Shown here piece after piece: positions 23,381 through 61,172 of a DNA stretch of 64,000 bases. The stretch comes from Candidatus Iainarchaeum sp. Its GTDB lineage: Archaea > Iainarchaeota > Iainarchaeia > JAGGVJ01. The stretch lies in assembly GCA_021158055.1 (NCBI GenBank), contig JAGGVJ010000019.1:23940-87939 (forward strand). Direction: 5' to 3'. Every line of letters begins with the position of its first letter. Position 1 is the stretch's first letter. Made by a program: the position numbers and the translations under genes. The notes beneath the pieces were generated by a model. The model saw only the letters and a list, made by a program, of their open reading frames with translations. It was not told the origin of the DNA and did no database searches.

Positions 23381-23420
23381 GGTTGAATGGATTATTTGAT
23401 GGTTGAATGGATTATTTGAT
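23381..23420 (+). repeat. Perfect 20-bp tandem duplication (GGTTGAATGGATTATTTGAT x2) spanning the helicase start codon
   Basis: Copy 1 is 23381-23400 and copy 2 is 23401-23420. Copy 1 ATG (23387) opens a 10-codon uORF that stops inside copy 2. Copy 2 ATG (23407) is the helicase start. Confidence 0.8.
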
Positions 23421-27667: not shown

Positions 27668-28067
27668 TTACTGGTATTCAGTGTATTTTTTGCACGAACC
27701 CCTTGATTTTTCAACAGGGTATTTCTGGTTGTTTTCAATCATTTTTTTGTCAAATTCAGTTACAAGGTCAATGTTGTATTTTTGAGCCATCCTCAAGATG
27801 CAGTAAAGGATGTCTGCGAGTTCCTTGCAGATCTCGTTTCTTGCAGATCTCGTTTCTTGTTTTCGGGGAGTCAAACAGTTCTTCGCATTCTTTTTCTGTT
27901 TTGTATCGAAAGTGTTCCAAAAGTTCTGCGCATTCAATGATTGTTGTTATTGCAAGCTCTTTTCCGCTGTGAAACTGGTCCCAGTCCCGTTCTTCACAAA
28001 ATTCCCTGACTCTTTCCTTCAGTTCTTGCACGTTTGTTTTTGAGTCCATCAAAGACACCTTTTTCAA
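27668..28067 (-). pseudogene. MazG-like NTP pyrophosphohydrolase disrupted by a 16-bp tandem duplication
   Basis: ORFs 27768-28067 and 27668-27937 are the two halves in different frames. A direct repeat ttgcagatctcgtttc x2 sits at 27825-27856. Removing one copy restores an approximately 127-aa MazG-like ORF (EExxE-type helix IIECAELLEHFRYKTEKECEELF). Confidence 0.7.
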
Positions 28068-28214
28068 TGGTTTTTGATTTTTTTAAGAGGCGGTTTGATT
28101 GCTTTGCCTTCAGGTTGGCAACCGGCATTTTTACTACTTTGTCATTTGAAGTTTTAGTACTTTTTGATTGCTTTTGATTGGCGGGTCTCATTTGAACTTT
28201 CAGCTTCGGCACCG

Positions 28215-28303
28215 GCACTGTTGCGAATGCAAAGGGAGCACCGTTGCAAATATACGGGGGCACCGTTGCAAATATACGGGGGCACCGTTGCGAATATAAA
28301 GGA
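28215..28303 (+). repeat. About four tandem copies of a 22-bp repeat (GCACCGTTGCAAATATACGGGG) upstream of a TIM-barrel gene
   Basis: Two perfect copies at 28238-28259 and 28260-28281, flanked by degenerate copies (gcactgttgcgaatgcaaaggga, gcaccgttgcgaatataaagga). Confidence 0.75.
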
Positions 28304-28330
28304 TTGCACCCTTATATGTTGTGTGAAAAT

Positions 28331-29164
28331 ATGTTTCGGATGGGCGTGAACAATGCAGTAAAGTTTGAAAATCCGGTTGAAGAGTTCCTGGATTTTATAA
28401 AGACAGATTTTAGCGCAGCTGAACTTGTTTGCGATTCCCCTGGAAATCTTCCTTCTGATTTTGATTCCGAAAGAATAAAGATTATTCGCGACTTAAGCGA
28501 GTCCCGTGATATCAGGATTTCTTTGCATGCCATTTATCTGGACATAAATCCTGTGAGCGTGGTTCCCCAGGTGCGCGAGTTTGCTGTTGATGAGTTGAAA
28601 AAATCAATTGAGCTTGCATCAGACTTGGGTGCGGGTGTTGTTACAATGCACGCCGGGTATTGTTTTCACTGGTGGAGAATTGACCCGGCCAAAAAGCGCA
28701 TCTTTGACGAGCACGCAGCAGATGTTTTTTGCATGTTAGGGGATTTTGCGCAGGACTGCGGTGTTGTGATCGGGATTGAAAACGGTTCCTGGTTTCTTGG
28801 AACCCCGAAAAAAAACCAGTTGGGTGATGGCTTGACCCCCATGCATTTTTGCATAGATGCCAGGGAGCATTTTGACTTTATAAAAAAAATAGACCATTCT
28901 TGTGTCGGCGTCACCTTTGATATCACAAAAAGTTTTTGCTCCGGAAACGATGTCATAAAACATTTTAAACTGCTGTCAAAAAACATTGTAAACGTGCATT
29001 TGGCAGACCTTTCAGCCATGGAATTTGACAAAAAAGCATTGTTTGCATATCTTGCAAAAAACTATTCCGGAAACATTATCTCCGAAATATGCAATTATGA
29101 TATTGCCCTTTCAAACAAGCTGCAGGTTGAATCCTTTATTGCCACCGGCGCTGATTTTACTTAA
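28331..29164 (+). CDS. Xylose isomerase-like TIM-barrel protein (sugar-phosphate isomerase/epimerase or AP-endonuclease-2 fold)
   Basis: ISLHAIYLDINPVS and ELASDLGAGVVTMHAGY, typical of PF01261. The ORF-track start (28244) reads through the tandem repeats; ATG at 28316/28331 is preferred. Confidence 0.6.
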   Translation: MFRMGVNNAVKFENPVEEFLDFIKTDFSAAELVCDSPGNLPSDFDSERIKIIRDLSESRDIRISLHAIYLDINPVSVVPQVREFAVDELKKSIELASDLGAGVVTMHAGYCFHWWRIDPAKKRIFDEHAADVFCMLGDFAQDCGVVIGIENGSWFLGTPKKNQLGDGLTPMHFCIDAREHFDFIKKIDHSCVGVTFDITKSFCSGNDVIKHFKLLSKNIVNVHLADLSAMEFDKKALFAYLAKNYSGNIISEICNYDIALSNKLQVESFIATGADFT

Positions 29165-30240
29165 TGAAGCAGGAAAATAACTATCAAGGGCAGGATGAAA
29201 AACGCAAAGATAACAAATGACACCGGGTATATTCTGGATCTGAACGACAAGTGAGCAAGGGATTTAGACAGGCCGATTGGTATTTTTCTGATCGGATAAA
29301 TCATAACAGAGCCAAAGGTGTTGAGCAGCACGTGGGCAAGTGCAAGTGTAACCCCTGCCGGTGACCCTGTTACCATGGCTGCCATCAATGCCGTGAACGT
29401 GGTGCCGATGTTTGCGCCGAGAATATACGGGAATATGCTTTCGATAGTCAGGATTCCGACTCCCGCCAGTGGGACTATTAAAGACACGCAAACTGAACTG
29501 CTTTGGATTAAGGCAGTCAAAAACAAGCCGGTGAAAAAACTTCTCATAGGAGTCCTGAACACGTGCTTGTTCAGCAGGTGATTGAACTCGGATTTAGCCA
29601 GTGGCTTTATTAGTTTTATAAAACATTTCAGTGAAAAAAACAGCATGGCCAGTGACAAAACAAAAATGATCACCGGGTTGTTTGACAGAAGATTCTGGAT
29701 GAAGTGGGTTGTGGGGTCAGTAAAGTAATTCAGCGGGCTTGAAAAAGAAATGTTCATATTTGAGCCCAGCAAAAATTGTGTCAGCAACAACGCGCTTTTT
29801 TCCAGGACATGGAAGTATATTTCCAATGGAAGCAGGACTATTACAATCATGATATTAAACAGATCGTGAACGGTCGCCACTTCAAATGCTTTCTTGAATT
29901 CTTCTTTTCGCGTGATGTGCCCTAAAGAGACGATTATGCCAGTGATGCCTGTTCCTATGTTGGCACCCATCAGTATTGGTATTGCTCCGGTGATTGTCAG
30001 GGCCCCGCTGGCAGTCAACCCGACCAGTATGGAACTGGTAACTGAAGAACTCTGGATAATGGACGTTGCAAGGATCCCTATAAAAAGCCCTGCAATGGGG
30101 TTTGTTGTGAATGAAATCAGCTGCTGCGCAAAATCGGTTCCAAGCAGTTTAAAAGAACCGGTCATTAGTTTAATGCTTAACAGGAAAAGAAACAGGACTG
30201 CTGCCAATAAAATAAGTCTGAAGATTATTTTTTTTTTCAT
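29161..30240 (-). CDS. Na+/phosphate cotransporter (NptA / Na_Pi_cotrans family)
   Basis: Duplicated GANIGT(G/T) motifs (MGANIGTGITG and LGANIGTTFTAL). Multi-TM. Confidence 0.75.
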   Translation of the reverse strand: MKKKIIFRLILLAAVLFLFLLSIKLMTGSFKLLGTDFAQQLISFTTNPIAGLFIGILATSIIQSSSVTSSILVGLTASGALTITGAIPILMGANIGTGITGIIVSLGHITRKEEFKKAFEVATVHDLFNIMIVIVLLPLEIYFHVLEKSALLLTQFLLGSNMNISFSSPLNYFTDPTTHFIQNLLSNNPVIIFVLSLAMLFFSLKCFIKLIKPLAKSEFNHLLNKHVFRTPMRSFFTGLFLTALIQSSSVCVSLIVPLAGVGILTIESIFPYILGANIGTTFTALMAAMVTGSPAGVTLALAHVLLNTFGSVMIYPIRKIPIGLSKSLAHLSFRSRIYPVSFVIFAFFILPLIVIFLLH

Positions 30241-30475: not shown

Positions 30476-30579
30476 GCGGGGATCGCATAGCCTGGTAGTG
30501 CGCTGGTCTCGAAATCGCCCGAAAGGGCCCAAGGCAGCCAGTGTCCCTGGACACGGGGGTTCGAATCCCTCTCCCCGCG
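30476..30579 (+). tRNA. tRNA-Ser (anticodon CGA) with a 22-nt canonical intron between positions 37 and 38
   Basis: Acceptor GCGGGGA/TCCCCGC. D arm GCAT-AGCCTGGTA-GTGC. Anticodon stem CTGGT/GCCAG with loop CTCGAA[intron ATCGCCCGAAAGGGCCCAAGGC]A. Long variable arm TGTCCCTGGACAC. T arm GGGGG-TTCGAAT-CCCTC. Discriminator G, no encoded CCA. Confidence 0.7.
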
Positions 30580-54076: not shown

Positions 54077-54127
54077 TTTATTTGTTTGTTTTGTTAATTT
54101 ATTTGTTTTGATTTAAGGGTGCTTTTG

Positions 54128-54874
54128 ATGGATTCTGCCAGGGGAAAAATTGAAGGGCAAATTAACTCTCTCCAGTCTTTTGGAACCCTTGACGGCCCGG
54201 GGATACGTTATGTTGTTTTCATGCAAGGATGCCCACTAAAATGTGTTTTTTGCCATAACGCCGGTGCGATTGACCTGAAAGGTGGAAAAAAAGTCACTTT
54301 GGACAAACTCATGGAAAAAATTGACAAATGCATTCCTTACCTTAAGCAAGGCGGAATAACTGTCAGCGGCGGGGAGCCAACTCTTCAGTGGCGGTTTGTC
54401 AAGGAGTTTCTTTCAGCGTGCGGGCAAAGGGGTCTCCACACAGCGCTGGATACGTGTCTTTTCACTAAAAAAGATGTTTTAGTCAACCTTATCCCGGAAG
54501 TTGATTTGTTTTTGGTTTCAGTCAAGCACATGGATGCGGAAAAACACTTTGGGTTGACCGGAAGGGACAACAAGCTGATTTTGGAGAACATCAGGTATGC
54601 GGCGTCAAAAAAGCCTGTCTGGCTGAGGTATGTGTTGATTGAAGGCATAACTGATTCAGAGGAAGACCTGCTTGACCTGATTGGTTTTGCAAAAAAGCTT
54701 GAAAAGCTTGAGTTAATTGAACTTCTTTCATTTAGTTCAATGGGTGTTGAAAAGCAAAGGGAATTCAAGGGTTTTAAAATCACGAAAACAAAAGATCTCA
54801 AGGCGCCTTCCCTGAAAAAAGTGCTTTGGGCAAAAAAACTGCTTGAAGAGAACGGGTTTAAAGTGGTTGTTTGA
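54128..54874 (+). CDS. pflA: Pyruvate formate-lyase activating enzyme (radical SAM)
   Basis: CPLKCVFCHN (Cx3Cx2C). GGITVSGGEP. Confidence 0.85.
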   Translation: MDSARGKIEGQINSLQSFGTLDGPGIRYVVFMQGCPLKCVFCHNAGAIDLKGGKKVTLDKLMEKIDKCIPYLKQGGITVSGGEPTLQWRFVKEFLSACGQRGLHTALDTCLFTKKDVLVNLIPEVDLFLVSVKHMDAEKHFGLTGRDNKLILENIRYAASKKPVWLRYVLIEGITDSEEDLLDLIGFAKKLEKLELIELLSFSSMGVEKQREFKGFKITKTKDLKAPSLKKVLWAKKLLEENGFKVVV

Positions 54875-54961
54875 CCGGGGTTTTTTGTGGTTTTGAATTG
54901 ATTACATATTTTGAATTGATTACATAATCACATTTATATTTTTGTTTTGCTTATTTATGTC

Positions 54962-59760: not shown

Positions 59761-59870
59761 CGGGCCGAGGAGGATTCGAACCCCCGACCTGCGGGTGACT
59801 TCAACAGGATTCTTTTTGAAAAAACCTGTTTCCGAAGCCCGCCGCAATATCCAGGCTATGCTACCGGCCC
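59761..59870 (-). tRNA. tRNA-Arg (anticodon TCG) with an approximately 34-nt canonical 37/38 intron
   Basis: Acceptor GGGCCGG/TCGGCCC. D arm GCAT-AGCCTGGATA-TTGC. Anticodon stem GCGGG/CCCGC, loop CTTCGG[AAACAGGTTTTTTCAAAAAGAATCCTGTTGAAGTC]A. T arm GGGGG-TTCGAAT-CCTCC. Confidence 0.65.
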
Positions 59871-61042: not shown

Positions 61043-61172
61043 CTGGCGGACCCGGAGAGATTTGAACTCTCGACTTACAGCTTTCACCAACCAAGGCTGG
61101 TTGTAGGAGGCTGTCGCCCTATTTTCCCACAATGCTTTTAACGGCATTGGCTCCAGGCTAGGCTACGGGTCC
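61043..61172 (-). tRNA. tRNA-Arg (anticodon CCT) with two insertions: about 30 nt in the D-loop and about 21 nt at 37/38; CCA encoded
   Basis: Acceptor GGACCCG/CGGGTCC. GCCT-AGCCTGG[AGCCAATGCCGTTAAAAGCATTGTGGGAAA]ATA-GGGC. Anticodon stem ACAGC/GCTGT, loop CTCCTA[CAACCAGCCTTGGTTGGTGAA]A. T arm GAGAG-TTCAAAT-CTCTC. Confidence 0.6.

Follow-up and report, generated by a model that had tools for sequence, protein, structure and literature searches.

Does the archaeon sampled here still carry a working copy of the small nucleotide pyrophosphohydrolase encoded on the minus strand at this locus, or has the gene been lost to a 16-bp tandem duplication that throws it out of frame? In the window (the whole stretch of DNA that was analyzed, 64 kb), the sequence TTGCAGATCTCGTTTC stands twice, head to tail, at 27825-27840 and 27841-27856, as the original prediction had it; reading out the sequence directly and by script showed the two copies to be 100% identical, in the plus-strand context gagttcc TTGCAGATCTCGTTTC TTGCAGATCTCGTTTC ttgttttcgg. 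Tandem Repeats Finder agrees, calling a tract from 27820 to 27859 with a period of 16, 2.5 copies, and 95% matches. In gene orientation, the copy met first is the one at 27841-27856 (TTGCAGATCTCGTTTC on the plus strand and GAAACGAGATCTGCAA on the gene strand), followed by its identical twin at 27825-27840. Chance as the source of this duplication is excluded: only about 1.5e-5 exact 16-mer tandem duplications are expected in the window (64000 x 4^-16), and exact tandem duplications with a period of at least 12 number four in the window and zero in 30 Markov-1 simulations of it. We favor the reading, at a probability of roughly 0.86, that the locus is a real frameshift pseudogene of slippage origin, recently formed and already fixed in the population.

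What was the gene before it was interrupted? Deleting one copy restores an ORF of 127 amino acids when counted from a TTG at 28067, the length originally predicted, and of 121 amino acids from the ATG at 28049 (MDSKTNVQELKERV...SCKKYTEYQ). The 121-amino-acid ORF matches the Pfam MazG-like family PF12643 at 46.1 bits (cut-off of 27; E of 6e-12) over profile positions 1 to 84 of 85. Against canonical MazG (PF03819), it scores 18.2 bits with a cut-off of 22, and NCBIfam holds no specific model for the restored protein. A phmmer search of PDB sequences found mouse RS21-C6/DCTPP1 (2a3q/6sqw; E of 3.6e-19), with query residues 7 to 119 aligned to chain residues 31 to 143 without a gap, straight through the repaired junction; human DCTPP1 is matched as well. 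The similarity to DCTPP1 is thus collinear and full length, taking in the C-terminal tail. The label of MazG-like NTP pyrophosphohydrolase, which had been proposed from the letters alone, is borne out by the PF12643 match and by this gapless alignment, and it is right at the superfamily level. More specifically, the gene belongs to the DCTPP1/RS21-C6 type within the all-alpha NTP pyrophosphohydrolases. Enzymes of this superfamily are "house-cleaning" enzymes that convert (d)NTPs to monophosphate and pyrophosphate, and mammalian DCTPP1 acts on dCTP and modified (5-modified) dCTPs. By homology to DCTPP1, the intact archaeal enzyme would probably have hydrolyzed substrates of the same class, (d)NTPs, to monophosphate and pyrophosphate.

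Structural comparison points the same way. The AlphaFold model was built for the closest ortholog, P0001, which is 96% identical, rather than for the window protein itself; it consists of helices only, in an all-alpha bundle (pLDDT of 88.2, pTM of 0.78), and the junction falls inside its helix 63-86. The top PDB matches of this model in Foldseek are all DCTPP1, AF1178, or MazG-type pyrophosphohydrolases. Mouse and human DCTPP1/RS21-C6/XTP3TPA (PDB 2a3q, 2oie/2oig, 6sqw, and 7mu5) form the closest known system, with about 30% identity to the restored protein; the mouse dCTPase superimposes on the model with TM-scores of 0.78/0.83 and an rmsd of 1.9 Å. A C-terminal tail of the form KYP...S/KGS..KYT is common to DCTPP1 and the restored protein, whereas the N- and C-terminal extensions of about 25 residues found in the mammalian proteins are missing from the archaeal protein of 121 residues. 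AF1178 of Archaeoglobus fulgidus (PDB 4qgp) is in the same size class, at about 120 residues, and has the same fold (sequence match with E of 2.1e-13; TM-scores of 0.76/0.86 and an rmsd of 1.5 against the model). Escherichia coli MazG (PF03819) belongs to the same all-alpha superfamily and follows the same ExxE...ExxD logic; however, canonical MazG is a tandem-domain protein and the restored protein is one short domain, and MazG proteins are weak structural matches to the model (E above 0.1). In the restored protein, the ExxE motif is formed by E39 and E42 on helix 2, and the ExxD motif by E71 and D74 on helix 3. These four residues (E40, E43, E72, and D75 in ortholog numbering) are invariant across 30 homologues and correspond to mouse residues 63, 66, 95, and 98, each 24 above its number in the restored protein; in the mouse RS21-C6 enzyme, these four residues are the Mg2+ ligands.

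The duplication strikes between the two motifs. The whole disrupted gene occupies 27668-28049 on the minus strand, from the ATG at 28049 to a TAA stop at 27670-27668, with alternative starts at TTG 28052, GTG 28058, and TTG 28067. With the restored protein as the query, tblastn places residues 1 to 70 at 28049-27840 and residues 64 to 121 at 27844-27671. Two minus-strand ORFs are read in the DNA as it stands, one at 27768-28067 (99 amino acids from the longest TTG start and 93 from the ATG) and the other at 27668-27937 (89 amino acids); they lie in different frames, overlap by about 170 nt, and, as had been noticed at the outset, both contain the peptide RNEICK. The duplicated unit of 16 nt amounts to five codons plus one nucleotide, and the junction in gene orientation reads AAA ACA AGA AAC GAG ATC TGC AAG, then AAA CGA GAT CTG CAA GGA ACT. 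The normal frame is lost right after K70, at the codon of the metal ligand E71.

Translation from the ATG as encoded (27768-28049, minus strand) gives a product of 93 residues, made up of residues 1 to 70 and an out-of-frame tail of 23 residues, KRDLQGTRRHPLLHLEDGSKIQH, before a stop. It keeps E39 and E42 and lacks E71 and D74, and so contains the first of the two metal motifs only. The frameshift also removes the greater part of the long helix 63-86, together with the last helix and the C-terminal tail, which is conserved, and 15 of the 29 invariant family columns in the alignment of 30 homologues fall past the junction. No Pfam match was returned for the N-terminal ORF as encoded, at either 93 or 99 residues. 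Given the loss of two metal ligands, most of a helix, the last helix, and the tail, the 93-residue product is almost certainly inactive. The stranded 3' part (27668-27823, minus strand) holds codons E71 to Q121 and the stop in the +1 frame relative to the start; this frame is still open, and the C-terminal ORF by itself matches PF12643 at 35.5 bits (1.2e-08). We also considered that the two ORFs might work as a split protein. This was rejected, since the downstream piece has no ATG ahead of M82 and its sole long-ORF start is a TTG within out-of-frame sequence. AF1178 and the DPANN proteins annotated as nucleotide pyrophosphohydrolases are intact single ORFs; in the window, the 16-bp duplication shifts the frame, and the second half of the protein cannot be made, which is also the main difference from DCTPP1. 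Judged from its sequence, then, the locus is a pseudogene of the PF12643 family and not a functional member of it.

All of this presumes that the second copy exists in the organism. Short tandem repeats can be misassembled, and a 22-bp array close by is in fact broken in several assemblies, so one could suppose that the true allele is single copy and the gene intact. We therefore turned to public contigs carrying the region, reached both directly and via the neighboring S2P protease gene. Eleven were retrieved, from five datasets and three assembly pipelines: JGI metagenome 3300016457, ENA ERZ23499370 (SAMN18353073) and ERZ23499350 (SAMN18353072), and Logan SRR14000037 and SRR14000038. (The JGI metagenome has five such contigs, of which four, L026, L027, L029, and L030, were retrieved and examined.) All 11 have both 16-bp copies, without a base changed. 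Relative to the window, the contigs show 0, 4, 10, 11, and 13 single-nucleotide polymorphisms (SNPs) over 6.3 kb, which makes at least five haplotypes, and the truncated 93-residue product (P0069) turns up repeatedly among public gene calls.

The assembly graph argues in the same direction. At k of 21 and above, there are no repeated k-mers over the site, leaving no de Bruijn cycle to be traversed wrongly, and 26 31-mers occur in the duplicated allele but not in a single-copy one; these junction k-mers must come from reads. The Logan contigs continue unbroken across the site. The exact restored sequences of 121 and 122 amino acids are absent from a collection of 15 billion proteins, in which the sole full-length relative above 90% identity is P0001, a cluster of one member. 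Two scans of metagenome contigs, one for the one- and two-copy patterns and the other for a 36-mer shared by the two alleles, gave no matches in a collection that does not include these samples; the duplicated allele that JGI 3300016457 is known to contain was itself missed. With an identical two-copy sequence coming out of three independent pipelines, an artefact of assembly or sequencing is extremely unlikely, and of the two origins first proposed, it is replication slippage that stands. A duplication common to all haplotypes is not an event in a single clone. It appears to be fixed, as read from assembled consensus sequences and for the population sampled, which may be one site or enrichment.

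When was the gene broken? The restored protein has 2,767 homologues, the closest named ones, at 55 to 68% identity, being from Aenigmarchaeota, Pacearchaeota, Woesearchaeota, Nanoarchaeia, and Micrarchaeia metagenome-assembled genomes (MAGs). A scan of genome contigs returned an Aenigmatarchaeota MAG as its best match, at 66%, and no genome belonging to the species sampled here; the gene neighborhood of the window does not recur at any of the 25 loci, and the host is accordingly placed as a DPANN-like archaeon. The ortholog P0001 itself is a protein of 122 residues encoded on JAUVJJ010000063.1 of GCA_030592315.1 (locus L033). The DNA of this locus is 89.6% identical to that of the window and has the same divergent AP_endonuc_2 neighbor. 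It contains exactly one 16-bp copy in an intact ORF of 122 codons, and the alignment gap is exactly 16 bp, coinciding with the copy at 27841-27856.

Comparing the restored window gene with L033 gives 17 synonymous and 5 nonsynonymous differences (dN/dS of about 0.07). Downstream of the junction, the counts are 4 and 1 (dN/dS of about 0.05, a coarse dating on five substitutions only), where about 82% of changes would be nonsynonymous under neutrality. Nearly all of the divergence from L033 must then have built up while the gene was functional, and on this substitution pattern, inactivation is recent relative to the split from L033. The identity of the two copies agrees with a recent event, as does the lack of any second lesion seen in the gene, the remainder of which is undamaged, and so does the sole SNP within the population that falls in it, at 27695 in L029 (TCG to TCA), which is synonymous in the old frame. 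The description of the pseudogene as "fresh" holds in this sense. It does not hold in the sense of an event confined to a single clone, as the break is already present in at least five haplotypes.

A young break with its downstream half still open might also be bypassed, the full-length enzyme being made through programmed +1 ribosomal frameshifting or other recoding, with an insertion of five residues. Both halves do remain open over the overlap of about 170 nt, and the promoter and start-region sequences are conserved with L033. We regard recoding as very improbable all the same. In the closest ortholog, as in each of the 30 aligned homologues, the protein is encoded by one ORF without a shift, and reading the sequence near the junction turned up no known +1 shift-prone site. 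A shift close to the junction would put five residues into the helix directly ahead of the invariant ExxD, and one farther downstream would exchange ExxD for out-of-frame sequence. The duplication, moreover, is recent and not a conserved feature.

How might the pseudogene have formed? The ends of the periodic tract at 27820-27859, which spans 2.5 units, are an imperfect direct repeat of 8 bp, GTTCCTTG and GTTTCTTG on the plus strand or CAAGAAAC and CAAGGAAC on the gene strand. When one copy is deleted, the gene strand reads CAAGAAAC GAGATCTG CAAGGAAC, that is, the two repeats with 8 nt between them. They are alike in seven of eight bases, with exact cores of CAAG and AAC, and their spacing of 16 bp is the length of the duplicated unit. 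It is this flanking microhomology, an imperfect repeat at 16-bp spacing, that makes Tandem Repeats Finder see an extra half copy. The single-copy ancestor would have had this repeat, CAAGAAAC...CAAGGAAC, in the long helix that carries the second metal motif. We propose that the nascent strand mispaired between the two microhomologies during replication and that 16 bp were copied twice, adding five codons and one nucleotide; translation from the normal start would then leave its frame at Glu71 and stop after 23 unrelated residues. An exact tandem copy as long as the distance separating two short direct repeats in the sequence before duplication is the mark of microhomology-mediated tandem duplication (MTD), or slipped-strand mispairing, and we infer that the duplication arose by microhomology-mediated replication slippage of this kind.

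MTDs account for about half of the fixed insertions of at least 10 bp in natural fission-yeast isolates (Dan et al. 2021, PMC8639346). Like those described there, the window duplication is an exact head-to-tail copy, sits in coding sequence, and causes loss of function (PMC8639346). In other respects it is different: the described MTDs are mostly subclonal, rapidly reverting, and from a eukaryote (PMC8639346), whereas this duplication appears fixed, is archaeal, and yielded no revertant that we could detect, and its microhomology, at seven of eight bases, is imperfect.

Perfect tandem duplications revert at high rates (PMC8639346), which raises the question of whether the break is a switch rather than a loss, a contingency mutation silencing the gene until slippage restores it exactly, as in fission yeast. 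Several observations would fit. No difference has arisen between the two copies, the gene shows no other damage, and exact tandem duplications of 16 to 22 bp number four in the window, compared with three in 241 kb of unrelated control loci (a small sample). Frequent reversion should, however, keep the site polymorphic and break unitig assemblies, and neither is seen. All 11 contigs, as assembled consensus sequences, have two copies; the single-copy allele is found in 0 of the 11 contigs and 0 of the five haplotypes and is missing from the protein collection; and no selective benefit is in evidence. A reversible switch is therefore unlikely in our estimation, a little less so than the further idea that this lineage acquires microhomology-mediated short tandem duplications at an unusually high rate and that the break in the dCTPase-like gene is a precisely reversible off-state. 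If this further idea were true, the break would be a natural archaeal case of a mechanism, "rapidly reversible mutation," that to date has been demonstrated in fission yeast. A switch is compatible with the pseudogene reading and does not exclude it. Under the latter, loss of the gene would have been neutral or tolerated in the sampled population.

The three other exact tandem duplications in the window may be described here. At 28234-28298, three 22-bp units of GGGGGCACCGTTGCAAATATAC, each with a TATA-like AAATATA, lie in tandem in the intergenic promoter region that separates the broken gene from the divergent AP_endonuc_2 gene, which starts at 28316. The array is one unit shorter in L033 than in the window, the ENA scaffold L034 has a gap of 100 Ns inside the array, and the Logan and JGI contigs L030 to L032 end there. 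Given this gap and these contig ends, three is a provisional count, and the number of copies may vary. At 23381-23420, an exact 20-bp duplication, GGTTGAATGGATTATTTGAT twice, spans the ATG (23407) of a UvrD-like helicase of 733 amino acids; the upstream copy provides a second ATG (23387) and with it an upstream ORF of 10 codons ending in TGA, and the helicase ORF is intact despite the duplication. At 54891-54926, an exact 18-bp duplication, TTTTGAATTGATTACATA twice, is intergenic, just after the ORF at 54119-54874.

The genes around the broken one are of the cellular kind rather than part of a mobile element; they encode an S2P/CBS protease, a nitroreductase, the UvrD-like helicase, the AP_endonuc_2 TIM-barrel protein, a Na/Pi cotransporter, and Fic. 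No paralogue of the broken gene was found within the 64-kb window. Bases 430-631 of L033 match 30579-30379 of the window and adjoin the AP_endonuc_2 gene of L033, indicating that the Na/Pi cotransporter gene (29161-30240) is missing at this place in the relative. The SNPs among haplotypes are clustered at 28915-28973 and 28523-28531, with seven in 59 bp inside the AP_endonuc_2 gene, which looks like a recombination tract rather than scattered mutation. Three of the four Rfam tRNA matches in the window (30476-30579, 59761-59870, and 61047-61172) are 104 to 126 nt long, a length that indicates intron-containing archaeal tRNAs; ARAGORN, in bacterial mode, reported only one tRNA.

Upstream of the broken gene on the minus strand, an intergenic block of about 100 nt at 28105-28205 (CTGAAAGTTCAAATGAGACCCGCC...GTAGTAAAAAT) is 100% identical to L033, in contrast to the 89.6% of the loci overall and the 25% difference at synonymous sites of the adjacent gene. 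It has an internal near-repeat of 14 nt, AAGTTCAAATGAGA and AACTTCAAATGACA, and a short ORF (MRPANQKQSKSTKTSNDKVVK...) starts in it, the 3' end of which is not conserved. A structured RNA was considered for this block and rejected: Rfam gave no family, with only a subthreshold CRISPR-DR hit at E of 0.07, and the predicted folding on either strand is no stabler than that of shuffled sequence (z of +0.58 and +0.29).

For annotation, the consequence of our findings is that the locus should be labeled a frameshifted DCTPP1-like nucleotide pyrophosphohydrolase pseudogene instead of two hypothetical proteins, and that it is not to be "corrected" as an assembly error. The DCTPP1-like family, frameshifting short tandem duplications, and microhomology-mediated slippage are already well known, and the locus is a new instance of them. 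What it provides is a clean natural case, in an uncultured archaeon, of a gene inactivated by microhomology-mediated tandem duplication and caught early, given two copies without a mismatch, a gene otherwise free of damage, and a signature of purifying selection that can still be seen. It also suggests that the population sampled here can do without a house-cleaning enzyme that is widely conserved among small-genome archaea.
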